From positions 1-64,000 of IMG/VR virus record IMGVR_UViG_3300034101_003795: a stretch of DNA of 64,000 nucleotides. One strand, given 5' to 3'. Position 1 is the first letter of the stretch; each line of letters begins with the position of its first letter. The notes under the pieces were generated by a model, which saw only the letters and a program-made list of their open reading frames with translations, ran no database searches and had not been told where the DNA came from. The translations under genes and the position numbers were made by a program. This document shows, in pieces, positions 7,180 through 27,385 of this stretch. The stretch comes from a virus.

Positions 7180-7231
7180 AAGGTATAACGATCCAATATT
7201 TTATTATCTTTCTCTCTGATGGAGATTCACA

Positions 7232-8077
7232 ATGCCCAATAATCGTATTTTTTATGGCTGCACAGCAGTAGATATAGGTGGTACTGTAGTAAATGGAGCC
7301 CAAAGTGTAGGCTTAACAACAAATCAAACTTTGGATCAGGCTTTTCAATTGGGCAGAGTTGGAATATATGATAATGCAGTAGTTGAGGGCCAAATTGAGA
7401 TAACAGTATCTAAAGTATTAGACAAAACTAGTAGTTTATGGAAATTAGCTACCGGTGGTGGAAATATTATCGACAACATCGACGATCGATCCACTATCAA
7501 AATTGCTATTGGTAGTGATACCTCTTCTTCTGTCGTTAGTGGTGTTGGAGTTCAAGGTACCGGATTTTATCTCTCTTCAATAGGATATAACTTTCCTGTT
7601 GACGGAGCTTTTACAGAAGATATCTCGTTTATTGGTGATAATCTTAGTACTGCTTCTGGTATAAGCGCACCAACAGGAACATCTGCTTCTGTTGGTCGAA
7701 GAGGCACTTTTAGTCTTTCTGGAGGCCCAGAAGGTACTGTTCTTAGTGCTAGTATCCAAGCTGATTTTGGTAGAGAAGCAATCTATGGATTAACCAATAC
7801 TGCTCCGGTTTTTCGTTATGCTAATTTTCCATTTGAAATTACCACAGAGTTTGAAGTTTTAGCAACCTCAGTTCCAGTGAGTAATATAAATTATGGTACT
7901 CCATGTGCTGGTTCAAGCTCTGGTAGTACCATTACAATTACAGCCTGTGGTTATTCTTTTACCACAAGTGGTAATGTTCTTGAAAGCGTAGCCTATAATG
8001 GTGGTGATACTGGTGGTGGTAATGCTACTATTACTTTTACTTATAAAACATATAATGATTTAACTATTAGTGGTTAA
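7232..8077 (+). CDS. Major tail (tube)-like protein 1
   Basis: 281 aa, beta-rich; NRIFYGC..GAQSVG..FQLG..IEIT..FPVDG.FTE..GREAI..RYANFPFEITTEFEV; located between terminator-like and chaperone/TMP genes. Confidence 0.6.
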   Translation: MPNNRIFYGCTAVDIGGTVVNGAQSVGLTTNQTLDQAFQLGRVGIYDNAVVEGQIEITVSKVLDKTSSLWKLATGGGNIIDNIDDRSTIKIAIGSDTSSSVVSGVGVQGTGFYLSSIGYNFPVDGAFTEDISFIGDNLSTASGISAPTGTSASVGRRGTFSLSGGPEGTVLSASIQADFGREAIYGLTNTAPVFRYANFPFEITTEFEVLATSVPVSNINYGTPCAGSSSGSTITITACGYSFTTSGNVLESVAYNGGDTGGGNATITFTYKTYNDLTISG

Positions 8078-8117
8078 TATCAATTAGTTTTAAACAACAA
8101 ACTAAAAGGAAAAGTTT

Positions 8118-8996
8118 GTGTCAAATAGGATTTTTTATGGCTGTCTTGGAATTGCTACATGTGGAGGAACACCAATAGAGGGTGTTCAGTCTGTATCTTT
8201 ATCTGCTAATAGATCAGTTAGCACAATATTCACTCCCGGTAAAAAAACATATGCCGGTAAATATTCTAATCTTCCTGATATTGAATTATCTTATACTAAA
8301 TATGTAGATTCATTAACATCATTTAGTAGTGAGGCTGGATTATCTGGTTACACTGGATTTACTATATTAGCGGGAGATGATACTAAAAAGTGTCTTGGTG
8401 GTAGTTTGACAACAATAGGATTTAAACAATTATTATTGTCTTCAATTACATATACTATATCTGTTGATGGTCCATTTACTGTTGAGCGAAAATATAAAGG
8501 ATGGTCATCAGAGGCTTGTGCTTCTGGTGGATTAGGCGTTTTTGCTAATTGTGACACTTCTATAGCATCAACAATAAAAAGAAAAGGATGTTTTTCAGGA
8601 TCGTCCCTACCATCAGAAATTTCTGCACAAACTATACAATCAGTAACAATTACATTTACTGTTAATCGAGAATTTATTAATCAGCTTGGTAGCAGAAAAC
8701 CATATGCATCTTATGTCACCTTTCCTGTTGAAACGTCATGCACATTTGATGTTTTAGCCAAATCTTTATCTAGTATAGATTTTCCACAACCTGAAGATTG
8801 TAAAAATACAAATGCAACAGAAACGAATATATCATTAGGTATAGGAGGATCATCTATATCTATTGATAAAGCTATCCTTACAGGATTAAATTATTCGGGT
8901 GGAGAAGCTAAAAAAGGTGGGTCTAATTTGAGAATATCAGCAACATATACAAGTTACGAAACACCATCATCATTAAAACCATTTATCATTTTATGA
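8118..8996 (+). CDS. Tail tube-like protein 2 (paralogue of 7232..8077)
   Basis: Colinear shared blocks NRIFYGC, GVQSV, LSSI.Y..VDG.FT, RE.I..LG, Y..FP.E....F.VLA, YSGG...GG; GTG start after AAGGA. Confidence 0.6.
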   Translation: MSNRIFYGCLGIATCGGTPIEGVQSVSLSANRSVSTIFTPGKKTYAGKYSNLPDIELSYTKYVDSLTSFSSEAGLSGYTGFTILAGDDTKKCLGGSLTTIGFKQLLLSSITYTISVDGPFTVERKYKGWSSEACASGGLGVFANCDTSIASTIKRKGCFSGSSLPSEISAQTIQSVTITFTVNREFINQLGSRKPYASYVTFPVETSCTFDVLAKSLSSIDFPQPEDCKNTNATETNISLGIGGSSISIDKAILTGLNYSGGEAKKGGSNLRISATYTSYETPSSLKPFIIL

Positions 8997-10021
8997 TTAA
9001 TTTAGATAAATTATTATATCGAATATTATTGGGATATTATTATATAATATTAAATGATGTTAAATATAAAGTTATATATCCGTCTATAGAATTAAAATAC
9101 GAAGCAGAAATATTATATGATTCTATTATAGAAGATAATAAGTATGATAAATCATGGATGACACAAGAAGAAATTAATTTTGAATTAGCTAAGAATGAAA
9201 TTTGGACTAAAGAAGATGAAGATATTCTGGAAAAAACTAAAAAATCTATAGATTTGATAAAAATAGAACTATATTTAAATTTTAGTAATTCTTCTAAAAG
9301 AAATAAAATCAAGAAGAATATTAAGATGATCAATAAACAAATTAATGAATTATTTTCTAAAAAAAATTCTCTTAGCTATTTAAGTATTAAAGAACATGCT
9401 TTAACTATAAAAAATGAATTTTTAATTATGAATAGTATATATACTTTAAACAATAAATTATACTTTGATAATCCTAAGAATGAAATTTATGAAACAAAAG
9501 AATTGCATTATTTTGTAAAAGAAATACTAGATAATAGTATAGATATAACAATGTTAAAATCAATATCTAGATCAGAACTGTGGAAATCTTATATTAATAG
9601 TAATGCTGAATTACAAAATAGTATAAATTTAAATGATGACTATAGATATTTATTGAGTATACATAAGATGTATGAAAACGCTAAACAGCATCCTGAGAGT
9701 CCAACAGAAGAAATTTTTAATGATGACGATGCTTTGGATGGATGGTTCTTATTCCAAAATAAGAAAGCAGAAAAAGAAAAGAAGAAAAATGCCACATTGG
9801 ATAAACTTGGAGACAAATTAAAAGAATCTAATCATGTATTTATTATTGGACAAGATCAACAAGAAATTGAAGATATATATGCTTTAAATGATGATAAAGA
9901 AAGAGAGATAGCCAGACAAGTTATAAATGCTTCTTATAAATCTTCATCACCTACTGATTGGAAAGATATCCCGTTTGTTAAACAACAGCTAATAGAAGAG
10001 CAAAATACACTAAAAAAATAG
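8993..10021 (+). CDS. Hypothetical helical protein, possible tail assembly chaperone
   Basis: K/E/I/N-rich; YENAKQHPESP..DDDALDGWF motif; between tube and TMP genes. Confidence 0.4.
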   Translation: MINLDKLLYRILLGYYYIILNDVKYKVIYPSIELKYEAEILYDSIIEDNKYDKSWMTQEEINFELAKNEIWTKEDEDILEKTKKSIDLIKIELYLNFSNSSKRNKIKKNIKMINKQINELFSKKNSLSYLSIKEHALTIKNEFLIMNSIYTLNNKLYFDNPKNEIYETKELHYFVKEILDNSIDITMLKSISRSELWKSYINSNAELQNSINLNDDYRYLLSIHKMYENAKQHPESPTEEIFNDDDALDGWFLFQNKKAEKEKKKNATLDKLGDKLKESNHVFIIGQDQQEIEDIYALNDDKEREIARQVINASYKSSSPTDWKDIPFVKQQLIEEQNTLKK

Positions 10022-10028
10022 GATTATT

Positions 10029-10343
10029 ATGAATAAACAATATAAAAAAGGATTAATCAATCAAATAACTAAAAGATTTCAAACGACCATCATTGGTTCA
10101 CTAGCCAGATTTGAAGATAATTTTGGATATTTATGGGGATTTAATTCTGATAAAGAACTTACCGATAAACAAATTGAATTTGCAGAAATGTGGGAATATG
10201 TGAGAACATCAGTATTGAATCATGGTAATAATCAGATGAGATCAGCTATTGATGAGATAATAGATCATATAGAAAAAGAAAACGAAATGTATAGATATCA
10301 CTTTATAATAAACCAAGATAATGATAAAAAGGAGCAAAAATGA
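10029..10343 (+). CDS. Hypothetical protein
   Basis: AGGA RBS; ATGA overlap with the next gene. Confidence 0.55.
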   Translation: MNKQYKKGLINQITKRFQTTIIGSLARFEDNFGYLWGFNSDKELTDKQIEFAEMWEYVRTSVLNHGNNQMRSAIDEIIDHIEKENEMYRYHFIINQDNDKKEQK

Positions 10344-11218
10344 TTACAGACAATTTTACCTTATTTGTAGATGGAAAAGACCAGGAATTTTTAATAAAAT
10401 CGCCAACCCTAGCTGATCAAAGAGAAGCCCAGAAAGTATACAATCAGGCATTCTCAGACGCTGTTAAATCCGGTTGTATAGTTAGGGCACGAATGGACGA
10501 TCTTTTAAAAGAACAGGGTCTGTGGGACGATAATAAGCAACAGAGACTGAATACCCTGCAACAACAACTCATGGATAATGAGAAAACTTTAGCTAAGGGT
10601 GGTATTAGTATTAAAACGGCTAAAGAAGTTGCTATTAGTATGAAAAAACTCAGAGAAGAAATTAGAGAACTTATTTCTGTAAGAACAAATTTGGACAATC
10701 ATACAGCAGAAGGACAGGCCGATAATGCTAGATTTAACTATTTAATAGCTTCGTGCTTGGTGTATAATACAACTAAAGAGAAGTATTTTAAGAGTTATGA
10801 AGAATATTTAGCTAGAGCCGCTGAGCCAGTAGCAATTAAATCGGCTCAGGTTTTAGCAAATATGCTTTATGGTTTAGATAATGATTATGAAAAGAAACTT
10901 CCTGAAAATAAATTTTTAATTAAATATAAATTTGTTAATGATGATTTGAGATTTGTTAATAAAGAAGGCAAATTAGTTGACTTTGAAGGTAGACTAGTAG
11001 ACGTTGATGGTAGATTCATAAATGGTGATGGTAAGTATGTTGATAAAGATGGTAATTTAGTAGATGAAAACGGAGACTATATTACAGACTTTAGGCCATT
11101 CCTTGATGATGACGGAAAACCAATACTTGAGGATACTGGGGAAACCAAACAAAATGAACAAGTTGAACCAATTCAGAATGAACCTAAAGCAGTCACAGAC
11201 ACACCAGCTACAAGTTGA
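10340..11218 (+). CDS. Putative tail assembly chaperone with C-terminal 7-aa VDxDG repeats
   Basis: AAGGAG RBS; coiled-coil region then VNKEGKL-VDFEGRL-VDVDGRF-INGDGKY-VDKDGNL-VDENGDY; immediately precedes the TMP. Confidence 0.45.
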   Translation: MITDNFTLFVDGKDQEFLIKSPTLADQREAQKVYNQAFSDAVKSGCIVRARMDDLLKEQGLWDDNKQQRLNTLQQQLMDNEKTLAKGGISIKTAKEVAISMKKLREEIRELISVRTNLDNHTAEGQADNARFNYLIASCLVYNTTKEKYFKSYEEYLARAAEPVAIKSAQVLANMLYGLDNDYEKKLPENKFLIKYKFVNDDLRFVNKEGKLVDFEGRLVDVDGRFINGDGKYVDKDGNLVDENGDYITDFRPFLDDDGKPILEDTGETKQNEQVEPIQNEPKAVTDTPATS

Positions 11219-11256
11219 TAACATTAATTTAGATCTATTAATACTAACCTAAATAG

Positions 11257-11290
11257 AAGGCATCATATAATCTATGGTGCCTTTTATTAT
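11257..11290 (+). terminator. Intrinsic terminator-like hairpin between chaperone and TMP
   Basis: AAGGCATCATA-taatc-TATGGTGCCTT (one G-U pair) followed by TTATTAT. Confidence 0.6.
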
Positions 11291-11313
11291 TAGATAACCA
11301 CAAAAAAAATAAT

Positions 11314-14300
11314 ATGGCAGCATTTAATTTAACAGCACAACTTAATTTACAAGGTCCAACAAATCTTAGACCAGTAATATCAGCTATTAGAAGAGAGCTA
11401 TCCAGCTTAACCTTGGATTTAAATATTAATCCAAGAACATCTCAAGGAATAAGAAGTGTTACTGCTGATGTTAATCAATTAAGTACTGCTCTTAGAAATG
11501 CTCAAACTAATGCGGCCGCATTAAATACCCAACTTAGAACTTTAGTTAATACACTTAGTGCTGTTAGTAATACTGCCACCTCGGTAGCTACCGGATTAGG
11601 CACTATCAATAGGCAAATAAGTAATAATGCGAATGCTGCCCGACAAGCAGGGTCTGAAATGGAAGAGTTCGGTAGGCAATCAGCATTAGCAGTAAGACGT
11701 TTTGCTGCGTTTAGTGTTGCTACAGGGTCAGTTTATGCGTTAGTAAGAGCAATATCATCAGCATATACAGAGTTCGTTCAGTTCAACAAAGAGTTTGTAA
11801 AATTACAACAAGTAACAGATTCTACAGCGTCATCGTTAGGTTCGTTATCATCAGAAATCACAAGATTATCAACAAGCCTTGGCGTTAGTTCATCAGAATT
11901 ATTAAATGTTTCAACCACATTAGCACAAGCTGGCTTAACTGCTACTCAAACCAAAACAGCCCTACAAGCATTAGCCAGATCAGCACTTGCCCCATCTTTT
12001 GATAATATGAATGCTACTGTAGAAGGTAGTATTGCATTGATGCAGCAATTTGGTATTAGTACTGATAATTTAGAGTCTTCTCTTAGTTCTATCAATTCTG
12101 TTGCTGCTAAGTTCGCCGTAGAAGCCAGTGATATTATTACCGCTATTCAACGTACTGGTGGTGTGTTTGCTTCTGCTAGTAAGGGAGTAAGCGAAGGTAC
12201 TCAAGCATTAAACGAATTTATTGCTATTTTTACTAGCGTTAGAGCAACAACTCGTGAAAGCGCAGAAACTATTGCAACAGGATTAAGAACAATTTTTACT
12301 CGTATTCAAAGAGGATCAACTATTGATGCGTTGAAAGAATTCGGTATTAATCTAACAGATTTAGATGGTAAATTCGTAGGGGTATATGAAGGAACAAGAA
12401 GGCTTAGCATAGCACTAAAAGGATTAGATCAAAGAGATTTAAGATTCTCAAAAATTATTGAAGAACTCGGTGGGTTCCGTCAAATCGGTAAGGTTATTCC
12501 ATTAATTCAACAGTTCGCTCTTGCTCAGCAAGCGCTTGGTGTTGCTCAAAGAGGAGCAGGATCGCTAGCATCAGATGCCGCAAAAGCACAAGAAGCATTA
12601 TCTGTTAGAGTAACAAAGGTTCGAGAAGAATTTATTGCTTTAATCAGAGATATTGGCCAAACACAAAGTTTTCAAAGATTTGTTGATATATCTTTAAGCT
12701 TAGCTAGCGCATTAATCTCTGTGGCTAATGCGGCAAAAGAAGTTTTACCAGCAATAGCAGCTATTGGTGCGATAAGAGCAGTTCCAGCAATAGGACAATA
12801 TTTTAGTGGTGTCGCTAGTGGTTTAGGAGGAAGAAGAAGATTCGCTAGGGGTGGTATGGTTCCTGGAAGTGGTAGTGGAGATACTGTTCCTGCTATGCTT
12901 GAACCAGGAGAGTTTGTTATAAGAAAAAATGCTGTTAATGCTATTGGTTCTGATAATCTTCACAGAATTAATAGATATGCGTCTGGCGGAACAGTAAAAT
13001 CATTATTATCAGAGAAAGCTTTATTAGGGAAAAAATACGACACAGAAGAAGTAGAAGATTTGTATAGTAATATTAAAATAGATAGAAGTAATGCTAATAA
13101 ATTATCACAAACTAGAGAAGCCTATAGGGAAAAAGCCAAAGAAATATGGGATCAAGCATCCTCTGCTTACTCTTCTAGTGGATCTCTTTCTGGAGCTAAT
13201 AGACTAATAAAAACAAAAGTAGGACTGCCTCTTCCTTCTAAATTAAGTTCTACTGAATTAGCTAAAAATAATACTGATCCTCGAAGACTAAACAAAATTC
13301 AGGGGTCTTTAGCAGAAAAAGAAACTTATAATAGAGTTAATAATTTGAAACAGTTACCCAAAGAAGCTGGGCCTGATTTCTCTATTGGTGGATCAGCAAC
13401 TAGTTTTGTTGAGGTTAAAAATAGGAGAGCATATACATCAGATGATGATTTAAAAGCAAAAGCATTATTAGGTCATCAATATGTTACAAAAAAAAGCTAT
13501 CTTAACAAGAAATTAGACGAGGCTCCCGGATTAAAAATATCTTTATTTTCTAGTAATGAAAAAGATTTTCAAAGAGCACCAAAATATGCTTCTGGTGGAA
13601 ATGTAGACAGTGTTCCTGCGTTGTTAACTCCTGGCGAATTTGTTATTAATAAAAAATCTGCCAGCGCAATTGGATCATCAAGACTGCATCAAATGAATAG
13701 AGCAGATAAAATTCAAGGATTTAATAAGGGTGGATTTGTTGGAGTACAAAAATTTGCTGATGGCGGAGAGGTTGAAAATAATAATATCATGGGCTTTAGT
13801 CCTATGACTATAATAACTGCTCTTATTGGCATTACTGCTGGATTTGTTGGACTAAGTAGAGTTATTCCATCCCTTGGTAGAGCTATTGGGGTTTTTAATA
13901 GATCTGTTGATATGGGTCTTCCAAGAACAGGAAGAGGAACAGCAAGACCAGGACAACCAAACGCTGGCAGAAGAGATTTTACTGAACAAGGTAGCTTAGT
14001 AAGAAGAAGAGGCGTCCTTGGAATGGGTCAAGGGGCTGATGCTATTGGTTTAGCTTTTGGTGGTACTGCTGTAGCACAAAGCGCTGGTGAAAATATTGGT
14101 GGAACACTAGGTAAACAAGTTAGCGAAACTGGTACAGCAATAGCCAGTGTTCTTGGCCTTGCAGCAGCGATACCGGGATTGGCTAATCCATTAGGAATAC
14201 TAACTACTGTTGTAGTTGCTGGAATTGCAGCTTTTAGCGCTTGGAATAAAGCAACAAGAGATGCTGCTATCGCAGAACAAGAAAAAATAATAGAACAAAA

Positions 14301-17300
14301 GAGCAGTAGTCTTGATAAAGCATTTGAAAAATTAACCAATACCACTAATAATGTTAAGATTGGTGAACTACAAAGTAGTATATTGTCTAATGTCAAAGAT
14401 GTAATTTCTTCAGAATCTGCAATCAGAAAAGAAAAATCAACAGCCTCAGCACCTAGTTGGTTCACAAAAACCTTTTTTGGCGCTAAAACAGATACCACTA
14501 AACTAAGTCAAGAATTAACTAGTTCTAGTAAATTAAGTGGAGAGACATTACAAAGATACATAATAGATGCTTTAAGAAAAGGCCAAACGTTCTCTCAAGT
14601 ACAAGGACAACTTAGAAATAGTGGAATCAATGCTCAGGATATAAAACAATCAATTGCCATAGCTCAAGGTGGCACTGCTGTTACCGACATAATGGCAAAA
14701 ATTACTGCTGCCCAACAAGAAAATAGAACAGGAGATCTTCCTGGATTACAAAAAGAGTTAGACACTATAATAAATAAATTAGTTAAAGAGTTTAGTGATG
14801 GTGCTATAGCACTGACTACTATTAGTGGAACCGGAGCAGCAGCAGCGGCTGCTGTAGATCTATTTGCTCAAAGTATAAAAAATGTATCAGCGGCAATAGG
14901 AAGGGCTTCTGCTGAATTTGATGAAGCTGAAAGAACTGCATCAATTTTATCAGCAGCGCCAGGACAAGCACTTTCTGCGGCCGGACCAAGCAGGCTAAAC
15001 GAAAATATATTTGATAATTTAAGATCATATTCATCACAAGAAGTTGTTGATGCTATTAATAGTCTTGGAGAAAAATTAAAATTTAGTCAAGGTTTTACTG
15101 GCGATCTTACAACAGCAGCCCTTAGTAAACAAGTATTAGAAGTTGGATTACCAAAAATATTAGCAGAAGCAGCTGCAAAACAACAGACTGGACAATTTAA
15201 TGAGACTGATAAAAACAGTATCCAAAAATCTTTATTAGGCTTATTTAAAAATGTCCCATCTATGGATCAAAACAAAGCCGAACTAGCTGTCACAGAAATT
15301 CTAGATACTATTCAAAAAATGACTACAGAAGGACAATCTGTAACTTTGCAGTCTCTTTCTGATAGTAGCAAAGCTCTTAATGAAATATTAAAAGGATTTA
15401 CAGAAACAACAGATGCAGCAAAAAATGCTCAAGTAGAATATAATAAATTACTTGATCAAGGTCGTCAATCGTTAATTGGACTTATAGAAGCTACTGATAA
15501 AGCTAGTGATTTGAGAAATCAAGCAGCTTCTGTTAGAAATCAAGGATCGGTACAATTATCCCAGGCCTTAGGACAATCAGTATCTTTAAAGGAACTAAAT
15601 TCATCTTTTGAAAAAACAATACAAACACTAACATCAACTATTGGTCCAAAAGGTGTTGTAGCTGGTACTGGAACTAATGACCCCAATCAAATAGCAGCAA
15701 GATTAGCTAAAAAACAAAAAGAAGAGGCTGATCTTCGTCTAAAATTAGATCAAGCAAATGTTGGTACTAATGAATATAATGCTTTACGATCTTCATTAGC
15801 TAGAGTTACATTAGAAGCTAGAAATTTAAGTAAGGCCCAAGAAAAATTAGCAACAGATAGTAGCAGAGCTTCTAATGCATTATCAAAAATACAAGAAATA
15901 AGAAGAACACAAGAGGCAGGAAGAGGATTATTTGAGAATCTTTTAACTAATATTAATAATCCAGACTGGCTATTAGAATTTCAAAGAAGTGTACAGTCAT
16001 TAAGAAATGTTATGAGTGGCCAAGGAACTAGTGAAGATATACCATTAGCTATAGAAGCTTTTAGACAAAGAGCATCAACACTGCCAGAGGCTCAGGCCGA
16101 AGAAGAGAGAAAAGATTTTTATGCAAAACTTAGAGAAATTTTAATTAATAGTGGGATAACAAGTCCAAAAGTTATTGATGCTATTCTTAATAAAATTGGG
16201 GCCAAGGGAGAAACTCAAGAATTACAAGATACTATAAAAGTATATACCGATGCTGTGATTGCTCAAGCAACAGCTCTTGAAAATCAGGCCGCTCAAACTG
16301 AGAAATCTGGACAAACCTTTTTTGGTCTTGTGAAAAAGGCTGGTGAAAATTTTGTTGCTACTATTGGTGGTGCTGCTGGTGGCGCTGGTGGTCAGCCAGT
16401 GGTAGGAAGACAGAATGGTGGAATGATTTATGCTAGTAAAGGTCAGTATGTAAATTTTCAACCAAGAGGAACTGATACTGTTCCTGCTATGTTAACTCCG
16501 GGAGAGTTTGTTGTTAATAAAAAAGCCACACAAAAAAATATTGGGTTATTAAAAAATATTAATAATGGTGGTAAAGGTTATAGTTCGGGTGGAGTTGTTT
16601 ATGCTAGAACAGGAGGAGAAATATTATCAAGTTTAGGCGATGCTTCTGATGTTTTATTTGCTTGGGATCTTGAAGGAAAAGGAATACCAGAAGATCGGTT
16701 TGACTGGGCTGCTATGAAAATACAAAGGGCAACTGATGAACTTGAAGAGAAAAGTTCGCTTACAAGAAATATAAATGATGATTTTATAGTTCGTGAGTTT
16801 TCTGGTCCTTCAAGAAGATTTATCTCTAAATCTGGTGCAGAAATAGCAAAACTCAATGACGCAGATTTTAGTGCATATAGGATGCCATTTAATGATGCGT
16901 ACAATGATTTAAAACGTTCTGATATATTAAAATATATTGATGATATGACCGTGCCAGCGCCACAACCAGGACAACCTCCTGTTGCTCCACCGTCGCCGCC
17001 ACAAAAACCTCAAGGCGCAGGATTTACTCTTCCCCCAGAAGGAGGACTTGCCGGCCAATTATCTTCATCGGATTTTATGAGAATGGGTGATCCGATTACA
17101 CAAAATATCGAAGCTAGAAGAGCAAAAGCTTTAGCTATTTCTAAAGATAAAGCTAAAACAAACGCATTTTATGATGAGCAAAGAGACAAAAGAGCGAATT
17201 TTATAGATAATGCTCCTCTTGCAGTAAAGAGAAAATTATTTAAAGATATTACAGAATCAGAAGACAGAAAAGGTCAAAGACTAGAAGAAAAAGCAGCAAG

Positions 17301-20190
17301 AGATGCTAAATTTTTAGAAATTGGTAGATCCGAAGCACAGATCCATGATGATGGTGGGGTTATTCTTAATGGTAAATTTATTGCAGACCCTACAGATGCT
17401 CAATTAATAGCATTAGGAAAACAAAGAGAACAGGAAATGAGAGAATACAAGAATGACATAAAACAATATGTTTTATTAAACGAAGACCTATTAAATAAAG
17501 CAAAAGCTGAAGCTTCAGCATTAAAAGATAAAACTGGATCATATTCAGAAGCTGATATTGCTAAAACATTAGCAGGAGATCCGTATGGAATGGCATCACT
17601 AGCCGGAGCCGGATCCATATCAATAACAGAAGCTGATATTAGGCGAAAACCACTAGGATATGATAAATTATCTAAGGATAAGCAGAGTAATTATGACAAT
17701 TATGTTGATTATTTAATTGAATTTAAATATGAGTTTGCCCGACAATCTGCACTAGAGGCTAAAATAGCAAAAAGAAGAGAAGCAGAAGCAAAACAGCGAG
17801 CTGATTTAGTCAAAGCTGAACAAGCTAAAAAAGACGATCTTAAACGACGAACAACTCCTGTAGTGAGTGATGAACCAATAACATCAGGATTTGCTGGTAT
17901 GCCGGAAGACAATCCTGATTTAAGAATGCCAACATTAGCAGATGCTCAGGCAGCTGACTCACAGATTAGAGCAAAAGAAGAAAAACAAGCAAGAAGAGAA
18001 TACGTTGCTAGTAAAGTGGCAGAATTTGCAGAAAAGAAAGATAGAATATTAAGCGAACTCAGTCAAGTCAGAAGCAGAGCGCAAAGTGATATTGATACAA
18101 CTTATAATAATCAACAATCATCATCATTTAATGGCGTAGTTTCGTCTGTTACCGGATCTGATCCTTATGCTATGCAAATACAAAATGCCAGAAAATTATT
18201 AGAAAGAGCTGATTATCTAAAACAAGATTTTAATAAGAGATGGATAAGTCGCATTGATCTTGCTAAAGATGGTAGATCATATGGAACTAAAGAACAAGTG
18301 GATCAAAATATTTCTGATAATACCAGTTTGGCCGAAGAGTATTTTAATGTATTAAGAGCTGTAAGATCTGGCGAATCTTCTAATGCAGACTTTTTTAATA
18401 ATACAGTTTTACCACAACATAATGAAGCTATTAATACAACTAGAGATGTGGCCGCTCAAGCAATTGTCGGGGCTGGCACACTAGGAGTTGGTGCTGCTGG
18501 AACTGCTACTGTTAGAGGAGCAATGGCGCTAGGTGCTGCAACAGGAGCGGCAGAATCAGCAACACTATCAACACTATCCGCTATTGATCAAGTAAAATCA
18601 AAACAAAAAACAATAGGAGAAGCAGTAACTGATGTTGCCACACAAACTGTAATTGGTGGTGCTGTTGGTGCTGTTACTGGAGGAGCTGGTCAAGTTGGTG
18701 GAGCCGGAGCAAGAGCATTATCAAAAGCATATGACGCTACTGTTGAACAAAATGCAAAAATAGCAGCAAAACAAGCCAAAATAGCAGCAGAACAAGCACA
18801 AGAAGCTGCCTCCGCTCAAGCTCGAAAGAAAGCACAACAAAAAGCGGCACAAGCAGCTAAAGAAAGAGCCGAAAGACAAGCCAAAGAACAAGCATCTAAA
18901 GCACAGGAAAATTTTGGACAAAAAGCAGGAGAATCTCAAGACGAATATTTGGCTAGAATTAGTGGTCGAGCTGTTGGTCCAAAAGCAGCCGCACAAACAG
19001 CAGCAGCAGCAAAAGCATCAGGAAAAACTGGTGGATCCTCAAGCACAGCCCCAAGAAATCCAGATGCTAAATATCCAGGATTTAGTAAAAAACCAATAAT
19101 GGATTACGATCAAATTCCTACTGGTAAAACTGGTGGAACAACTTCTACTACAGTTGAAGATGTTGTTGGTCTACCAGGAAGCGCAGGAGGAGGAAGAGAA
19201 ACAATAGCCTATAAAAGATCCAAAGCAACAACAGCACAAGCACAAAAACCAGCAGAACCATTATTTTTCCCACAAAGAAACTCATCAGCTCAGATGAGAA
19301 CATTTAGGTTTAGAGAAGCAGGAATACCTCAGTCTAAAATGGATGATTTAGTTAGTAAATATTACACAAATAAAACTCTCTTATCAAAAGACGAACTTAG
19401 ATGGGTCCAAGATTTTCTAAAAGATCCAGATAATGTAGCAGGATTTAATTTTAGATCAAATAGGCCAACAGCAGCAATGTCAAGGGGCGGAGTGGTTTAT
19501 GCTTCAAAAGGCCAGTTAATTCCATATATGCCAAAAGGTACCGATACTGTACCGGCCATGTTAACTCCTGGCGAATTCGTAATAAATAGAGCGGCCACAC
19601 AAAAACATCTACCATTATTAAGAGCCATAAATAATAATAGTAATAATGTACAAAGATTTAGTGGCGGCGGCAGAGTACAATATTTTGATAAGGGGTCTAA
19701 AGGAGCAGTTCAAGCATCATCTGGCGGCGGAGGTGTATCAAATATAAGTTTAGATACTACTGGATTGAATGGTGCTTTTGGTTCTTTTTCTCAATATGTT
19801 GAGAATCTTAAAGGCTATATTGATTCTTTTGGAGTATCACTAACGAATATTGGATCATTATTAGGAAATCTTTCGTCCATAGAATCTGGAGCAAGCAAAT
19901 TATCAGTATCAGCAGCCTCTTTAAGTTCAGCATCATCAAGACTTAATGACGCAATGATTACTTTAAATTCTTCTCTAGGAACTTTGGGTCAAAGTTTATC
20001 TAATGTACCAAAAGTTATTGATTTTAACGCTACTGGAGAAATACCAATTAATATTTCATTAGATGTTAATGGTGGTCAAGGATTAAATGATCAGCTATCT
20101 AAATTTGAAGATGATATATATACTAAAATAGAAAATGAATTGCGTAGAGCATTACCAGGTATTAATATAAACATAACTAGAAGTACATAA
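11314..20190 (+). CDS. Tail tape measure protein with internal repeat-bracketed insert regions
   Basis: 2958 aa. TP901-type TMP core (LAQAGL..., KFAVEASDIITAIQRTGG..., RESAETIATGLRTIFTRIQR), Ala-rich helical regions, hydrophobic segments, four DTVPAML(T/E)PGEFV-type motifs. Confidence 0.9.
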   Translation: MAAFNLTAQLNLQGPTNLRPVISAIRRELSSLTLDLNINPRTSQGIRSVTADVNQLSTALRNAQTNAAALNTQLRTLVNTLSAVSNTATSVATGLGTINRQISNNANAARQAGSEMEEFGRQSALAVRRFAAFSVATGSVYALVRAISSAYTEFVQFNKEFVKLQQVTDSTASSLGSLSSEITRLSTSLGVSSSELLNVSTTLAQAGLTATQTKTALQALARSALAPSFDNMNATVEGSIALMQQFGISTDNLESSLSSINSVAAKFAVEASDIITAIQRTGGVFASASKGVSEGTQALNEFIAIFTSVRATTRESAETIATGLRTIFTRIQRGSTIDALKEFGINLTDLDGKFVGVYEGTRRLSIALKGLDQRDLRFSKIIEELGGFRQIGKVIPLIQQFALAQQALGVAQRGAGSLASDAAKAQEALSVRVTKVREEFIALIRDIGQTQSFQRFVDISLSLASALISVANAAKEVLPAIAAIGAIRAVPAIGQYFSGVASGLGGRRRFARGGMVPGSGSGDTVPAMLEPGEFVIRKNAVNAIGSDNLHRINRYASGGTVKSLLSEKALLGKKYDTEEVEDLYSNIKIDRSNANKLSQTREAYREKAKEIWDQASSAYSSSGSLSGANRLIKTKVGLPLPSKLSSTELAKNNTDPRRLNKIQGSLAEKETYNRVNNLKQLPKEAGPDFSIGGSATSFVEVKNRRAYTSDDDLKAKALLGHQYVTKKSYLNKKLDEAPGLKISLFSSNEKDFQRAPKYASGGNVDSVPALLTPGEFVINKKSASAIGSSRLHQMNRADKIQGFNKGGFVGVQKFADGGEVENNNIMGFSPMTIITALIGITAGFVGLSRVIPSLGRAIGVFNRSVDMGLPRTGRGTARPGQPNAGRRDFTEQGSLVRRRGVLGMGQGADAIGLAFGGTAVAQSAGENIGGTLGKQVSETGTAIASVLGLAAAIPGLANPLGILTTVVVAGIAAFSAWNKATRDAAIAEQEKIIEQKSSSLDKAFEKLTNTTNNVKIGELQSSILSNVKDVISSESAIRKEKSTASAPSWFTKTFFGAKTDTTKLSQELTSSSKLSGETLQRYIIDALRKGQTFSQVQGQLRNSGINAQDIKQSIAIAQGGTAVTDIMAKITAAQQENRTGDLPGLQKELDTIINKLVKEFSDGAIALTTISGTGAAAAAAVDLFAQSIKNVSAAIGRASAEFDEAERTASILSAAPGQALSAAGPSRLNENIFDNLRSYSSQEVVDAINSLGEKLKFSQGFTGDLTTAALSKQVLEVGLPKILAEAAAKQQTGQFNETDKNSIQKSLLGLFKNVPSMDQNKAELAVTEILDTIQKMTTEGQSVTLQSLSDSSKALNEILKGFTETTDAAKNAQVEYNKLLDQGRQSLIGLIEATDKASDLRNQAASVRNQGSVQLSQALGQSVSLKELNSSFEKTIQTLTSTIGPKGVVAGTGTNDPNQIAARLAKKQKEEADLRLKLDQANVGTNEYNALRSSLARVTLEARNLSKAQEKLATDSSRASNALSKIQEIRRTQEAGRGLFENLLTNINNPDWLLEFQRSVQSLRNVMSGQGTSEDIPLAIEAFRQRASTLPEAQAEEERKDFYAKLREILINSGITSPKVIDAILNKIGAKGETQELQDTIKVYTDAVIAQATALENQAAQTEKSGQTFFGLVKKAGENFVATIGGAAGGAGGQPVVGRQNGGMIYASKGQYVNFQPRGTDTVPAMLTPGEFVVNKKATQKNIGLLKNINNGGKGYSSGGVVYARTGGEILSSLGDASDVLFAWDLEGKGIPEDRFDWAAMKIQRATDELEEKSSLTRNINDDFIVREFSGPSRRFISKSGAEIAKLNDADFSAYRMPFNDAYNDLKRSDILKYIDDMTVPAPQPGQPPVAPPSPPQKPQGAGFTLPPEGGLAGQLSSSDFMRMGDPITQNIEARRAKALAISKDKAKTNAFYDEQRDKRANFIDNAPLAVKRKLFKDITESEDRKGQRLEEKAARDAKFLEIGRSEAQIHDDGGVILNGKFIADPTDAQLIALGKQREQEMREYKNDIKQYVLLNEDLLNKAKAEASALKDKTGSYSEADIAKTLAGDPYGMASLAGAGSISITEADIRRKPLGYDKLSKDKQSNYDNYVDYLIEFKYEFARQSALEAKIAKRREAEAKQRADLVKAEQAKKDDLKRRTTPVVSDEPITSGFAGMPEDNPDLRMPTLADAQAADSQIRAKEEKQARREYVASKVAEFAEKKDRILSELSQVRSRAQSDIDTTYNNQQSSSFNGVVSSVTGSDPYAMQIQNARKLLERADYLKQDFNKRWISRIDLAKDGRSYGTKEQVDQNISDNTSLAEEYFNVLRAVRSGESSNADFFNNTVLPQHNEAINTTRDVAAQAIVGAGTLGVGAAGTATVRGAMALGAATGAAESATLSTLSAIDQVKSKQKTIGEAVTDVATQTVIGGAVGAVTGGAGQVGGAGARALSKAYDATVEQNAKIAAKQAKIAAEQAQEAASAQARKKAQQKAAQAAKERAERQAKEQASKAQENFGQKAGESQDEYLARISGRAVGPKAAAQTAAAAKASGKTGGSSSTAPRNPDAKYPGFSKKPIMDYDQIPTGKTGGTTSTTVEDVVGLPGSAGGGRETIAYKRSKATTAQAQKPAEPLFFPQRNSSAQMRTFRFREAGIPQSKMDDLVSKYYTNKTLLSKDELRWVQDFLKDPDNVAGFNFRSNRPTAAMSRGGVVYASKGQLIPYMPKGTDTVPAMLTPGEFVINRAATQKHLPLLRAINNNSNNVQRFSGGGRVQYFDKGSKGAVQASSGGGGVSNISLDTTGLNGAFGSFSQYVENLKGYIDSFGVSLTNIGSLLGNLSSIESGASKLSVSAASLSSASSRLNDAMITLNSSLGTLGQSLSNVPKVIDFNATGEIPINISLDVNGGQGLNDQLSKFEDDIYTKIENELRRALPGININITRST
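12838..12990 (+). repeat. TMP motif copy 1 (RFARGGMVPGSGSGDTVPAMLEPGEFVI...RYASGG)
   Basis: Protein- and DNA-level similarity to copies 2-4. Confidence 0.85.
13582..13770 (+). repeat. TMP motif copy 2 (KYASGGNVDSVPALLTPGEFVI...KFADGG)
   Basis: Shares TGTTAACTCCTGGCGAATT with copy 4. Confidence 0.85.
16405..16620 (+). repeat. TMP motif copy 3 (GGMIYASKGQ...GTDTVPAMLTPGEFVV)
   Basis: Shares GATACTGTTCCTGCTATG with copy 1 and YASKGQ with copy 4. Confidence 0.85.
19477..19700 (+). repeat. TMP motif copy 4 (GGVVYASKGQ...GTDTVPAMLTPGEFVI)
   Basis: Near-identical in protein sequence to copy 3. Confidence 0.85.
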
Positions 20191-20204: not shown

Positions 20205-23200
20205 ATGTCAATTAAATATTATGCAAACAGAGTTCAAGAAACAACCTCCGGAACAGGAGCTAGTAATTTAGTATTATCTGGATCTCCAACAGGATATAGA
20301 AGATTTAGTACCACGATTGGGCCAGATAAAACAATCACATATTATATATATCGTTCAGATAATGCCTTTGAGTGGGAGATTGGAACAGGCTATATTCTTA
20401 GTAATGGTGGAATTGACCAATTAGTAAGACAAAAAGTATCATCTTCTAGTAGTGCTGGTTCTTTTGTTAATTTTAGTGCCGGAACAAAATATGTTGAGAC
20501 AATTATTAGTGATGATAGAGTAAATACATCTTTCCAAAACGTAGAAGAAAAATCATCTAGTTTTACAGCAGCATATATTCCGACTACGTATATAGTCAAT
20601 TCTTCTTCTGGAAATGTTCAAGTATCATTACCAACAGTAATAAGTCAAGAACCAATAATACTTGGATTCTTGCTAACTGCAACATCTGGTAATGTTTATT
20701 CTCAGACAGATGCTATTAAATTGATGCCTAATGGTGTTGAAACTATTAATGGATTATCTTCAAAATCATTATCTATAAAATCAGACTACTTACAAATAGC
20801 TTCAATTCCATCAAAAAGCGGATGGATAGTTTTAGATCCTATACAAGATTCAACCAATCCTTATGGTTCAGATGGGACAATTCAATTTGCACAAAGTCAA
20901 TCATTTAGCGGTGTTAGCGCATTATCTTGGGATTATTCCTCATCATCTTTATTAATCGGGGGCAGTGGACTAGCATCAGCAGATAATATTATTTCTACAT
21001 CAACTCTAACAACAATATTTAATGAGCAATCACGAGATAAAGACTTTAGAATAGAGGGTAGTGGTACTACTCATATGTTTTTTGTTGATGCTAGTTTAAA
21101 TAGAATAGGAATAAACACATCATCTGTTACAGACACACTAACAGTACAGACCCCACCAAACCTCGGAATCAGATTAAACGCTAGTGGTTTAGGCCCAACT
21201 ATAACTTTAGTTAATACTAGTCCTAGTGGTTTATCGACAAATTCTCGTATAGGATCCATAGTATTTTCTGGATTAAATTCTAGTGGATCATCAATAGAAT
21301 ATGGACGCTTGTATGGTAAAATAATATCAGCAACATCAAATGCTGAAAATTCTTCTATAATATTAGAAGTACTTAATAATGGTACAAAAAAAGAAGTTTG
21401 CTCTCTAACTCCTAGTGGAGTAACACTAGGATTTAATAACTCTAATACTAATGGTATATTATTAGGCGGTGCTAGTAGTAATGAAGGAGATAATATAGTA
21501 TTAGGTTATTATAATAATGCTTGTGGATCTAACTGTGTTGTTATTGGTAATGATTCTAATGTGGCATCAGGAACATTTGGTGGGGCGATAGGAAGAACAA
21601 TAGCTCTTTCGGGATCTAATGTTTGGGTATTTGGTGGTTCTGGAGTATCTCTGAGCGGATCTAACGCCACATATTTAGCTCTTAATAACGATAATCACAT
21701 AGATATAAAAGGATCAGGACTCATAGAATATAATACAAAAACTGACGGAGATACAGTATTAAAGATTAAAAATAATAGAGTATTATCTAGTGGAGTTAAA
21801 GAGTCATTATCTTTTGAGTTCCAAAATGTCGGAGGTAGTAAAACCGGAGTATTACTAACGTCAGACTTAGTTTCTGTAACAAATGGTAGTGAGAACTCAT
21901 CATTAACTAGTAAAATTTTAGTAGATGGAGCTAGTACAGAGATCTTAAGATTACAAAAATCAAAAATATTAATTGGATCAAATACTAGTTCTGGTAATAA
22001 TTTATCTATAGGTTTATCAAATACTATTTATAGTACTGGTAATATTATTTATGGTAATAATATTTTAACTAGTGGAACTAATAATGTTATTGTTGGATCA
22101 AATTTACAGGCTTCTGGAAATAATATTTCAATATTTGGATCTAGTAATACGTGTTTAGTTTCTGGAAATTTAGGAGTTGTAATTTTTGGTAACAGTAATT
22201 CGGCTAATGAGGATTATGCTGTTTCACTAGGATCAAACAATTCTAGTAGCGGATTATATTCTGTTGCTTGTGGTTATTTAAATGGAGCACACGGAGCTTA
22301 TTCTGTTGGAATTGGCTCGAATAATACAGTAGTTAGTAAAGCATCCGTGGCAGTGGGTCGAAGTAATTCTATTAATAGTTCAGATATAGACGCTTCAATA
22401 TTTGCTGTTGGTATAGGTAATAATGTTAATATAAATGGCAGTGGCACAGTTATTGGTCATTATAATCAACTATATGGATCTGGTGGTTTAGTTATTGGAA
22501 AAGGTTGCGTGTCTTCTGGATTAAATAATATTGTTATTGGCAATACCAATAATGTGTCTGGTAGTAATAATTTTATATTTGGTAATAACATTAATTGGTC
22601 TGGTTCTAACACAACAATTTTTGGTGGATCATCATTAAATATTGTTTGGAGCGGATCATCATATGTGAACGCAACAGTGGCTGGCAGTCATAATACTTTG
22701 ACCACTAGTAGTGGAGTATATATAAATAGCACTTCTGGAGTATATGTTTCTGGTAATGTAATTAGTTTAACTAATAGTACAAATAATAGAATAAATATAT
22801 CATCTACTGGAGTAGAATTATATGGTTCTGGAACTTTGGCTCTTAGAAGTGGCCCCTCAGGATCCGTAACATTATCAACATCCGGAATTAATTATACTAA
22901 TTATCCAACCGCTACTGGAGTTGGAACTAGTCTTGTTATTGAGAATAATACCATAAAGGCCGCTACTAGTTCGGAAAGATTTAAAGAAAATATTAGACCA
23001 TATGATAAAGGACTAAATACGTTACTACAAATTAATCCAGTGTATTTTAATTATAAGAATAGTAATGTTCCTAGGGCCGGCTTGATAGCTGAATCAATCA
23101 GCGAATTAGGATTGAATGAATTTGTTTCTAAAGATGCTAACGGACAAATAGAAAGTTTAGACTATGGATCTATGATAGTTGTCTTAATTAATTCTATTAA

Positions 23201-23240
23201 AGAACTTAAACATCAACTGGATATTATTAATAATAAATAA
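20205..23240 (+). CDS. Trimeric tail fibre with YadA-like head repeats and C-terminal peptidase S74 intramolecular chaperone
   Basis: N-terminal YANRVQETT.GTG..L.L.G anchor; repeated (S/N)xxIGxxN units; C-terminal SSERFKENI...INPVYFNY...GLIAE...LDYGSMIVVLINSIKEL. Confidence 0.8.
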   Translation: MSIKYYANRVQETTSGTGASNLVLSGSPTGYRRFSTTIGPDKTITYYIYRSDNAFEWEIGTGYILSNGGIDQLVRQKVSSSSSAGSFVNFSAGTKYVETIISDDRVNTSFQNVEEKSSSFTAAYIPTTYIVNSSSGNVQVSLPTVISQEPIILGFLLTATSGNVYSQTDAIKLMPNGVETINGLSSKSLSIKSDYLQIASIPSKSGWIVLDPIQDSTNPYGSDGTIQFAQSQSFSGVSALSWDYSSSSLLIGGSGLASADNIISTSTLTTIFNEQSRDKDFRIEGSGTTHMFFVDASLNRIGINTSSVTDTLTVQTPPNLGIRLNASGLGPTITLVNTSPSGLSTNSRIGSIVFSGLNSSGSSIEYGRLYGKIISATSNAENSSIILEVLNNGTKKEVCSLTPSGVTLGFNNSNTNGILLGGASSNEGDNIVLGYYNNACGSNCVVIGNDSNVASGTFGGAIGRTIALSGSNVWVFGGSGVSLSGSNATYLALNNDNHIDIKGSGLIEYNTKTDGDTVLKIKNNRVLSSGVKESLSFEFQNVGGSKTGVLLTSDLVSVTNGSENSSLTSKILVDGASTEILRLQKSKILIGSNTSSGNNLSIGLSNTIYSTGNIIYGNNILTSGTNNVIVGSNLQASGNNISIFGSSNTCLVSGNLGVVIFGNSNSANEDYAVSLGSNNSSSGLYSVACGYLNGAHGAYSVGIGSNNTVVSKASVAVGRSNSINSSDIDASIFAVGIGNNVNINGSGTVIGHYNQLYGSGGLVIGKGCVSSGLNNIVIGNTNNVSGSNNFIFGNNINWSGSNTTIFGGSSLNIVWSGSSYVNATVAGSHNTLTTSSGVYINSTSGVYVSGNVISLTNSTNNRINISSTGVELYGSGTLALRSGPSGSVTLSTSGINYTNYPTATGVGTSLVIENNTIKAATSSERFKENIRPYDKGLNTLLQINPVYFNYKNSNVPRAGLIAESISELGLNEFVSKDANGQIESLDYGSMIVVLINSIKELKHQLDIINNK

Positions 23241-23261
23241 TTATAGAATTGGATTATTAAA

Positions 23262-24710
23262 ATGGCTATAGTTATAGGAAGCATATCATTAGATGATTCA
23301 TATGTTCCAACAGTAAAAGTATCATATGAGTATATTAGAAGCTCATCACAAGAAGTTATTGGTGGTGCTGCGGTATATACAGTGTCCGGCAGAGTTGTTG
23401 TTACTGATGGTAATGCATCATCAGTTATGAGTAAATTGCAAAATATAAGAGAAATTGGTAGAAAATCAGAGTGTATGGATGTTAGTATTCCTGGTTTTTA
23501 TAGTGGACCAGCCAGGGTAACAAATGTAAATATCGAACAAGGATCCGATCCATCGTGGATAAATCAAGGGGAATTTTCTATAGAATTAAAGTCCTCACTA
23601 CCTTCATTGCCGCCTAATACTCTTGGTATAACGGCCGCCGATGCTGTAACAGAGTTCAGCGTATCAGAAGTTTTAGAAATAGGAGAAGAATCTCATTCTT
23701 ATTATTATAGCACTGGGGGATTTAGCAAAGGTTTTGTTAAATTTACTAATAAAATTAGTATAACGTGTAAACCGTTTTGTTCTGCTAGTGGTAGTCCTTT
23801 ATCTAAAAGTTTAGCATTATTAAATAGAGTATTAAAAATTGGCCCTTCTAGTTTAGCATTTAACACATATGCTAGCTATACTAAAGTGCTACAGTCAAGA
23901 ACCATAGAAATCAACACTGACGGAGGAATAACTTTTTCAGCAACTATGATACTGGTTCCTCCGTCATCATCGTATCCTCTAGCATTAGTAGATATAAGCT
24001 TTGCTCATAATGAAAACTATCAAGATAAATCTAGAAGATTTATTATTTCAGGAACTATTAATGGTTTAGTCAATATTCCTTGGGGTAATCCAATATCACT
24101 AGGTAGTTCATCCCCAAGTAGTAAACTTGGTGGTGCCGAAAGTGCCTTCGGTGCCATAAAGGGTACGTTTAATAGTTTTGGAAGTTGGGGTACTGGAGGA
24201 AGTAGACTAATCACAGGCGAAATACCTAATTGTCCACTGACTAGTGCTATTAGCTCTGCTTGTTCATCAACTAACAACAATATTAATACTTGCGTAGAAC
24301 CATTGAACACTACCGTAACAAAATCTAGAACAGAAGGAACGATTAATTTTAGCTTTGAATGGGGAACATCTCAGCAAGATAACTGTGTTAATGGTGGTAA
24401 AAAAACAGAAATAACCATAGATGTTCAAAATTCTCAACCACAATTTGTTGAGCATGTTATACCTAGATATGGGACATTAATCCAAGATCTTAATTGTCTT
24501 TCAGCAAAAAGAGTTAGTTATACTTCTTCTACAACAACAGACGAATCATCATGTTCGTCATCATTAGATTGTTCGTCAGCTACTCTTGATGAATCATTAG
24601 ATATAAATAAATATATTGGTGGAGACTTTCTCTTAATAGGAAGTTCTATTAGTAAGAGCAGAACATCATATGTTGTTAAAAAAGAATATATAGAACGATG
24701 TAGTACATAG
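23262..24710 (+). CDS. Baseplate/distal-tail-like structural protein A
   Basis: Beta-rich with many Cys; paralogous to the next gene (PTVKVSYEY.RS...IGG..V.TVSG). Confidence 0.45.
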   Translation: MAIVIGSISLDDSYVPTVKVSYEYIRSSSQEVIGGAAVYTVSGRVVVTDGNASSVMSKLQNIREIGRKSECMDVSIPGFYSGPARVTNVNIEQGSDPSWINQGEFSIELKSSLPSLPPNTLGITAADAVTEFSVSEVLEIGEESHSYYYSTGGFSKGFVKFTNKISITCKPFCSASGSPLSKSLALLNRVLKIGPSSLAFNTYASYTKVLQSRTIEINTDGGITFSATMILVPPSSSYPLALVDISFAHNENYQDKSRRFIISGTINGLVNIPWGNPISLGSSSPSSKLGGAESAFGAIKGTFNSFGSWGTGGSRLITGEIPNCPLTSAISSACSSTNNNINTCVEPLNTTVTKSRTEGTINFSFEWGTSQQDNCVNGGKKTEITIDVQNSQPQFVEHVIPRYGTLIQDLNCLSAKRVSYTSSTTTDESSCSSSLDCSSATLDESLDINKYIGGDFLLIGSSISKSRTSYVVKKEYIERCST

Positions 24711-24718
24711 GAAATAAT

Positions 24719-26170: not shown

Positions 26171-27372
26171 CATCTGGGAAAACATATTCTGATTTAGTAT
26201 CTAATGCTAATTCTTTTGTTACTGTTGGAGATACTGGAAATCCAGCATATAGTGGAACTGTTGGAGTATTAGGTAACGTTGATTATACTTATCAGATATC
26301 TAAATACGAAATTACACATCGTGAATATGTTTTATTTTTAAATAGTGTAGATCCTTTTGGAATTGATCCTAATGATATATATGATCCTCTTATTGGAAGA
26401 GGAATATTTATGGATAACACCAGAGTTGCTGGATATAGATATTATTTATCAGATGAAGTTTTTAATAATAAACCAGTAACTTATATAAGTTTTAGTAGAG
26501 CGGTAAGATTTTGTAATTGGTTACATAATGGTGGTAAAAGATATAAGGTTTCAGACTACACAGCTACCGCACCACAAAATATCGGAGCATATAATATTGG
26601 CGTAGAAACGATTAATTATGTGGCTCCTATTAATAATGCCACATTCCGATTACCAACATACTCAGAATGGTTCAAGGCGGCATATTATAATGGTAGTGGA
26701 GCATACAACTCATACGCAACCCAATCTAATATCGCTCCAGGACAGGTGTCTGCTTACAGTAACGGAGATGGATATTATCAGCCTTTAAACTTATTATCAA
26801 ATCTAGAATTAGACATATTAACAAATAATAATAGTCAATTTAATGTCACAAACAACAATATTTCAAACTTACAATTTGATATATTAAGAAATGATATTTC
26901 TGTACATAATAGAATTTCAAATCTAGAATTAGACATATTAAGTAGTAATAATAATAATAATGGTATAACAAATAATCATATTTCAAATCTACAATTTGAT
27001 ATATTAAGCAATAATTTAGTTTTAATAAATAATATAATGTCATACTCACAATTTGATATATTGTGTTGTTCCCCACCAATCATATATAACAGCCTTAATT
27101 CTTCATCACTACAGAATGATATATTTTTGTCTACCACAAATAGTAAGTATTTAGAAAATATAATCACTTATCATAATTATGATATTTTAACTTCATCGGC
27201 TAGTTCATATAGTAGTAATTTATCGAACTTTCAAATAGACATATTATCGTCAAATAAAACTATAAATACGCAAATATTAATGTTAAATATAGACTGTTTA
27301 TGTTCAGAAAATAAAAAATATCTAATTAACAGTATATCGGTTTACGATGTTTTATGTAACAAAAAAAGTTGA
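26161..27372 (+). CDS. Virion protein: N-terminal half of an FGE/SUMF1-type (C-type lectin fold) domain fused to SNLxxDIL repeats
   Basis: FVTVGDTGN..VDYTYQISKYEIT..EY..FLNSVDP..KPVTYIS...AVRFCNWLHNG..FRLPTYSEWFKAAYY..YATQSN.AP..NGDG; lacks the YG.YD..GNV.E and GFR end. Confidence 0.75.
   Translation: MWLTSGKTYSDLVSNANSFVTVGDTGNPAYSGTVGVLGNVDYTYQISKYEITHREYVLFLNSVDPFGIDPNDIYDPLIGRGIFMDNTRVAGYRYYLSDEVFNNKPVTYISFSRAVRFCNWLHNGGKRYKVSDYTATAPQNIGAYNIGVETINYVAPINNATFRLPTYSEWFKAAYYNGSGAYNSYATQSNIAPGQVSAYSNGDGYYQPLNLLSNLELDILTNNNSQFNVTNNNISNLQFDILRNDISVHNRISNLELDILSSNNNNNGITNNHISNLQFDILSNNLVLINNIMSYSQFDILCCSPPIIYNSLNSSSLQNDIFLSTTNSKYLENIITYHNYDILTSSASSYSSNLSNFQIDILSSNKTINTQILMLNIDCLCSENKKYLINSISVYDVLCNKKS
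26797..27355 (+). repeat. About 10 degenerate S-x-x-x-x-D-I-L repeats in Asn-rich spacers
   Basis: SNLELDIL, SNLQFDIL, SNLELDIL, SNLQFDIL, SYSQFDIL, SSLQNDIF, TYHNYDIL, SNFQIDIL...; DNA TCAAATCTAGAATTAGACATATTA at 26797 and 26917 (120-nt period). Confidence 0.8.
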
Positions 27373-27385
27373 CCATTTTTCAAAT

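Follow-up and report, generated by a model that had tools for sequence, protein, structure and literature searches.

A predicted PD-(D/E)XK nuclease module inside the tape measure protein of an uncultured phage

We analysed 64,000 nucleotides of viral DNA (hereafter, the window), positions 1 to 64,000 of the IMG/VR virus record IMGVR_UViG_3300034101_003795, a 91,952-base record with a completeness estimate of 66%. The phage tape measure protein (TMP) encoded in the window contains, at amino acids (aa) 560-757 (window 12991-13584), a module of about 200 residues in which a helical subdomain is joined to a minimal PD-(D/E)XK core with a complete predicted active site. We lean modestly towards the reading that this module is delivered with the TMP and cleaves nucleic acid in the host. 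From its predicted structure, we place the module in the PD-(D/E)XK superfamily as a family of its own, distinct from Hjc, VRR-NUC and PDDEXK_14; we call it new because no Pfam, PHROG or PDB sequence model matches it.

The structural evidence came from an AlphaFold2 model of the module, built with 19 sequences, which had a mean predicted local distance difference test (pLDDT) score of 95.1 and a predicted template modelling (pTM) score of 0.88. In model numbering, the core consists of a helix (97-115), three strands (119-121, 130-132 and 138-143), a second helix (151-166) and a last strand (181-187). Residue E668 (model residue 109) falls in the first helix, D688 (129) directly before the second strand, E700 and K702 (141 and 143) in the third strand, and K716 (157) in the second helix. 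A model of the core alone (aa 649-757) gave the same elements at a pLDDT of 83. As modelled, this order of elements and placement of residues is the textbook PD-(D/E)XK layout. A restriction-endonuclease-type fold had been proposed for this part of the TMP in an earlier note made from the letters of the sequence, and an alpha-beta-beta-beta(-alpha-beta) core of that type was indeed predicted with high confidence. The strings quoted in that note were all present, namely NKIQGSLAEKE from aa 660 (window 13291), EAGPDF from aa 684 (13363) and FVEVK from aa 698 (13405), and the insert was basic and charged as described (pI 9.6, with 36 Lys and Arg residues versus 25 Asp and Glu). The domain does lie inside the TMP, but the start given for it, 12990, was one base out of frame, and stop codons appear when 12990-13582 is translated as stated.

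Fold searches with the whole module returned lists dominated by the helical subdomain, with nothing clear among them, and the subdomain (aa 560-654) had no clear fold match of its own. Searches with the core alone returned nearly only PD-(D/E)XK nucleases; its structural neighbours included Hjc, Hje, VRR-NUC/FAN1 and NucS, and the tRNA-splicing endonuclease subunit SEN15 was also among the matches. Foldseek scores were modest, with nothing at E <= 0.001 against PDB or BFVD, and the fold evidence therefore consists in the uniformity of the match list and not in any single match. In a search with protein-language-model features (ESM Atlas), 26 of the 30 nearest named clusters were phage PDDEXK_14, with a score of 0.91. 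It is very improbable, given these results, that the module is something other than a PD-(D/E)XK domain, such as a chance motif in a TMP-specific fold or another alpha/beta fold of, for example, the Pol-beta nucleotidyltransferase type. Root-mean-square deviations in the alignments with DncV were 5.4-6.8 A, no nucleotidyltransferase signature (G-[GS] ... [DE]-x-[DE]) was present, and both the succession of secondary-structure elements and the positions of E, D and ExK within them matched the nuclease fold exactly; the core-only searches and the language-model search agreed on this point.

The bare E..PD..ExK pattern was not above chance. The pattern E-x(10-40)-PD-x(8-30)-[DE]-x-K arose in 40% of shuffles of the TMP, and a second, unrelated match occurred in the same protein at aa 2169-2224. 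The module stands above chance because its residues are conserved across homologues and because of its predicted fold. An exhaustive phmmer search over 1.84 billion representative proteins identified 17 homologues of the module, all within TMPs of 1,626-4,351 aa (two of them fragments), in which the module was placed at about aa 510-1,020. None of the 17 was free-standing, and a word-indexed search for small relatives of 59-191 aa found none. Across the 17 non-redundant sequences, which were 25-47% identical, about 11 of 198 columns were invariant: N629, N660, I662, G664, E668, G686, D688, F689, E700, K702 and K716. This set takes in every proposed active-site residue, and the Glu, Asp and Glu-x-Lys named in the earlier note proved invariant in all homologues. 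The "PD" of its signature held in part, in that D688 was invariant, as were G686 and F689, but the proline was not conserved and was replaced by alanine in most homologues. In the helical subdomain, D582, A608, A628 and N629 were invariant or nearly so.

These conservation data also bear on whether the module might be a non-catalytic relic, serving as a structural spacer, as a metal- or nucleic-acid-binding plug, or as an interaction surface for chaperones, the tube or the membrane, with its residues kept for stability or binding. Many proteins with the PD-(D/E)XK fold are inactive, SEN15 among them, any insert counts in the length-measuring role of a TMP, and evolution is faster in the module than elsewhere in the protein, with 67% identity to its two closest relatives (P0002 and P0003) versus 87% for the remainder. 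Inactive derivatives, however, normally lose their catalytic residues, and here all four, plus K716, were invariant in 17 sequences. We consider such a relic quite unlikely.

The carrier protein is well supported as a TMP. Pfam matched PhageMin_Tail (PF10145) with an E value of 3.7e-23 and 82.9 bits against a cut-off of 33.2, several PHROG tape-measure families matched as well, and homologues carry the name "TP901 family phage tail tape measure protein". Together with this domain, the protein has great length, hydrophobic segments and a place in the virion gene block upstream of fibre-like genes. The features of the gene are collected in Table 1.

Table 1. Features of the TMP gene and of the embedded module, in window positions.
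Feature	Position	Strand	Evidence
TMP gene P0001	11314..20190	+	single open reading frame (ORF), 2,958 aa
Conserved N-terminal TMP domain, PhageMin_Tail, aa 181-385	11854..12468	+	Pfam match
Motif copy 1, aa about 513-556, GG..V.G.G.GD-T-VPAML-E-PGEFV, upstream module boundary	12850..12981	+	sequence
N-terminal, mainly helical subdomain of the module, aa 560-654	12991..13275	+	AlphaFold2, pLDDT 94-98; helices at model residues 42-63 and 66-77
Predicted PD-(D/E)XK-type core, aa 655-757 (helix, three strands, helix, strand)	13276..13584	+	AlphaFold2, fold searches
E668, invariant Glu in core helix, motif N-K-I-x-G-x-x-x-E	13315..13317	+	17/17 non-redundant homologues
D688, invariant Asp opening strand 2, G-x-D-F	13375..13377	+	17/17
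E700-V-K702, invariant Glu-x-Lys in strand 3	13411..13419	+	17/17 for E and for K
K716, invariant Lys in second core helix	13459..13461	+	17/17
Motif copy 2, aa about 758-800, downstream module boundary	13585..13713	+	sequence
Hydrophobic segment aa 825-854, candidate membrane-inserting helix, then Arg-rich loop	13786..13875	+	Kyte-Doolittle 19-residue mean up to 1.95
Hydrophobic Gly/Ala-rich segment, aa 939-978	14128..14247	+	hydropathy
Motif copy 3, P at aa 1724	16414..16608	+	sequence
Motif copy 4, P at aa 2747	19483..19683	+	sequence

The N-terminal part of the TMP (aa 100-520, window 11611-12873) was far more widespread than the module. More than 2,164 proteins of 1,626-5,177 aa matched it at E <= 1e-10, and the best 120 of them were 63-97% identical over this region and lay on contigs of up to 230 kb. 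The phage lineage behind these proteins is very large and uncultured, and its tape measures are both giant and mosaic; one relative was named as coming from a Sphingobacteriia metagenome-assembled genome. A hidden Markov model (HMM) of the module found only 5 of these best 120 relatives (P0002, P0003, P0005, P0006 and P0079), and the remaining TMPs had a different sequence after motif copy 1. Longer TMPs combined the module with further shared blocks, and the module also occurred in TMPs whose N-terminal domain was only 25-28% identical and which had no flanking motif. Over its whole length, the TMP alternated between blocks of 98-100% and blocks of 60-77% identity to P0002 and P0003, which points to recent recombination within the gene. 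Judged from these sequence comparisons, the module is an accessory, recombining element of fixed position, accessory because it is present in no more than 5 of the 120 closest TMPs. The resemblance to polymorphic toxins drawn in the earlier note appears weak: swapping among similar carriers does occur (5 of 120, with others differing at the slot), but the module is internal and not C-terminal, and no immunity gene was seen, although no search aimed at one was made.

In every case the module lay directly behind the N-terminal TMP domain, a position that would also suit a role on the phage's own genome, in which the module binds or processes DNA ends or structures and thereby holds, pilots or trims the leading end or cuts branched DNA. 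In phage 80alpha, the TMP is a trimer whose N-termini sit at the neck below the DNA end and which presumably leaves along with the DNA (10.1101/2024.12.10.627806). Among the closest structural neighbours of the core are the structure-specific enzymes Hjc, Hje, VRR-NUC/FAN1 and NucS, and such a role would sidestep the self-damage expected of a non-specific DNase. However, hundreds of residues separate aa 560-757 from the N-terminal end, which is the part in contact with the neck. Against a core role in genome delivery stands the finding that 115 of the 120 closest TMPs have no such module, and for DNA processing the phage encodes a PDDEXK_1 nuclease and RuvB separately. We regard action on the phage's own genome as unlikely.

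For the favoured reading, cleavage of nucleic acid in the host, we propose the following sequence of events. The module would be built into the virion within the trimeric TMP, about one-fifth of the way from its head-proximal N-terminus, and would probably be kept inside the tail tube in an extended or staggered metastable state. At infection, the TMP would be expelled ahead of the DNA, and its hydrophobic segments at aa 825-854 and 939-978 would enter the envelope. The module, along with the rest of the N-terminal part, may then reach the cytoplasmic side beside the entering DNA, as does the TMP-fused RNA polymerase of Thermus phage P23-45. There the module would fold, take up a divalent metal at D688 and E700, together with E668, and cleave nucleic acid before any phage gene is expressed. 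Likely targets would be the host chromosome, a plasmid or defence-related DNA, and possibly RNA or branched DNA. Phage DNA could be spared by modification, by substrate specificity or by the geometry of tethering. As to modification, the earlier note had speculated that phage glycosyltransferases could protect the DNA; GT4 enzymes and a sugar-nucleotide pathway are encoded, but nothing ties these to DNA modification as opposed to surface or virion glycans. That the domain is delivered at infection and attacks host DNA or defence elements, as the earlier note also supposed, is something we infer from one line of support, the analogy with a TMP-fused enzyme that has been demonstrated by experiment (PMC10770324).

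Several observations weigh against this reading, some concerning the assignment as a nuclease and others concerning delivery. No member of a Pfam nuclease clan matched the insert at E <= 1, and none was found in 16 homologous TMPs; PHROGs gave nothing relevant for the insert, PDB sequences gave no match to it at E <= 10, and the PF24579 HMM (25-bit cut-off) had no match at E <= 10 in the whole 91,952-base record. Residues were assigned to the active site by the secondary-structure elements in which they lie. The module was carried by 0 of 50,697 phage records, a search of viral contigs with the single protein returned no related loci, and we found no cultured phage with it. By our own estimate, the tube lumen measures about 4 nm, too little for three 22-kDa globules side by side, and one has to suppose that the copies are unfolded or staggered. 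By the positive-inside rule, the Arg-rich loop after the segment at aa 825-854 could put the module on the periplasmic side. Finally, the phage's own DNA would be at risk from a non-specific DNase that is active and produced late in infection.

Families of the PD-(D/E)XK superfamily often have no significant sequence or profile matches. Here, the core fold of the superfamily was predicted and its catalytic signature was present, and a sequence or profile match to a member family was lacking. The tie to PDDEXK_14 is a language-model resemblance only, at the score given above. Like PDDEXK_14 (PF24579), a putative PDDEXK endonuclease domain of phages, the core is of phage origin and of a similar size (about 100-140 aa), but PDDEXK_14 members are small and free-standing, unlike the module. 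We also compared it with the minimal nucleases Hjc (PDB 1gef and 2wcw), VRR-NUC (4qbn and 4qbl; FAN1) and Cas4 SSO0001 (4ic1). The module has no detectable sequence or profile similarity to any of these, and it has an additional subdomain, about 95 residues long, at its N-terminal end and, in its second helix, an invariant Lys. It also lacks the Cys cluster of Cas4, and it is internal to a virion protein and not a free dimeric enzyme. The phage's own free-standing PDDEXK_1 nuclease, which is RecB/Cas4-like (49076-50077, minus strand, E 3e-16) and lies in the replication module, was considered as a paralogue of the module and rejected, as the two had no sequence similarity.

We found no description in the literature of a PD-(D/E)XK domain in a TMP. 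Thermus phage P23-45 has, as the N-terminal part of its TMP, a virion RNA polymerase for transcription of the pre-early genes (PMC10770324), and this is the only experimentally shown TMP-fused enzyme acting on host-side nucleic acid that we found. The P23-45 protein gp96 (also in P74-26, G20c and TSP4) resembles the present case in that the head-proximal part of a giant TMP is an enzyme, one that works on nucleic acid inside the host immediately after ejection (PMC10770324). It proves by experiment that this part of a TMP can be functional in the cell, but it is an RNA polymerase at the very N-terminus and not a nuclease behind a TMP domain, and the lineages are unrelated. Tme, a TMP-related effector of the contractile injection system of Streptomyces davawensis, contains an EndA-type nuclease with DNase activity in vitro (PMC11126660). 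Tme is thus likewise a TMP-like protein with nuclease cargo, but its nuclease is C-terminal and EndA-type (DRGH / H-N-N, beta-beta-alpha-Me), and it belongs to a contractile injection system and not to a phage. The polyvalent proteins of phages and conjugative elements are large, multidomain proteins that are delivered with DNA and carry swappable effector domains for early conflict with the host (PMC5512222). They differ from the carrier described here in that they are not tail rulers, and PMC5512222 makes no mention of tape measure proteins, with "restriction endonuclease" appearing only in a cited title on an inhibitor.

Peptidoglycan-hydrolase motifs are embedded in the TMPs of mycobacteriophage TM4 (Rpf-like and M23) and of T5 (Pb2), where they are accessory, patchy in distribution and used at infection. 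They differ from the module in that they are not nucleases and their target, the cell wall, lies outside the cytoplasm.

The module sits between the first two of four copies of the motif D-x-VPA-[ML]-L-x-PGEFV in the TMP, in which the proline falls at aa 526, 768, 1724 and 2747. A PHROG without an assigned function, phrog_35029, matched four stretches of the TMP. The motif also occurred in TMPs of phages of Clavibacter, Ralstonia, Thermobifida and, in about 85 cases, Gordonia, and cyanophage proteins with the annotation lysozyme or transmembrane protein had it too; in the ESM Atlas, the motif gave only sub-threshold leads (score 0.82). Megablast against the 50,697 phage records detected no DNA match to the TMP gene, and tblastn matches of the TMP to known phages were all due to the flanking motif and not to the insert. 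The sole full-length tblastn match, Thermobifida phage P318 (MK240575.1), was rejected as a homologue, as its two motif copies bracket about 200 unrelated residues without E/D/ExK. The TMP segment of this cultured phage (6001-6912) has a similar bracketed-insert layout, with different content and short internal repeats.

A bolder reading of this arrangement is that the slot behind the N-terminal domain is an exchangeable cargo bay, that the module is one of many enzymes injected ahead of the DNA, and that the repeated GG..D-x-VPA-x-L-x-PGEFV motif marks cassette boundaries as a site of recombination or processing. We hold this to be conceivable, with the odds against it. Among the 16 module-bearing TMP homologues, three had weak GNAT acetyltransferase matches (best E 0.0017) and one had a cytidyltransferase-related match (E 2.9e-6); these are possibly further enzyme cargo in the rulers.

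Elsewhere in the genome, the genes upstream of the TMP gene had no family matches, and tube and chaperone genes were thus not identified there. Downstream of the TMP gene, at 20205-37262 on the plus strand, lie genes for large virion proteins. Domains in these proteins include the intramolecular chaperone Peptidase_S74 and FGE-sulfatase types, along with repeats of the DUF11 and SprB kinds, and the presence of SprB is a hint that the host belongs to the Bacteroidota. Two ORFs at 44756-49079 on the minus strand encode DNA polymerase III alpha, one with the PHP and catalytic domains (47202-49079) and the other with the finger, HhH and OB domains (44756-46396), and an ORF for an RNase_T-type exonuclease lies between them. 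The record also encodes a dNMP kinase. At record positions 70227-80703 (7227-17703 of the record segment L003), we found a glycosylation and sugar-nucleotide cluster (GT4, IMPDH/GMP-reductase-like, DegT aminotransferase, NAD epimerase, GDP-mannose-4,6-dehydratase-like, GT34-like and PfkB kinase). Upstream of this cluster, a ClpP-like protease and a sigma-70 region-4 protein are encoded (L003 3605-4285 and 5512-6150). At record positions 82390-85415, we found adjoining genes for a trypsin-like protease, volactin (actin-like, E 4e-65) and a RuvB-like ATPase.

TMPs are usually viewed as rulers and channel formers. By analogy with the P23-45 enzyme, the phage analysed here probably carries a ready-made predicted nuclease into the cell with its DNA. 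If this is true, some phages bring along an enzyme that cuts DNA or RNA and is in place before gene expression, which would bear on how host takeover or counter-defence starts, on how an enzyme is stored in a 4-nm tube and refolded, and on how phage DNA is spared. Should the cargo-bay reading also be true, the tail ruler would be the phage counterpart of polymorphic-toxin and polyvalent-protein systems. The module could join annotation libraries, and it is a candidate compact nuclease.

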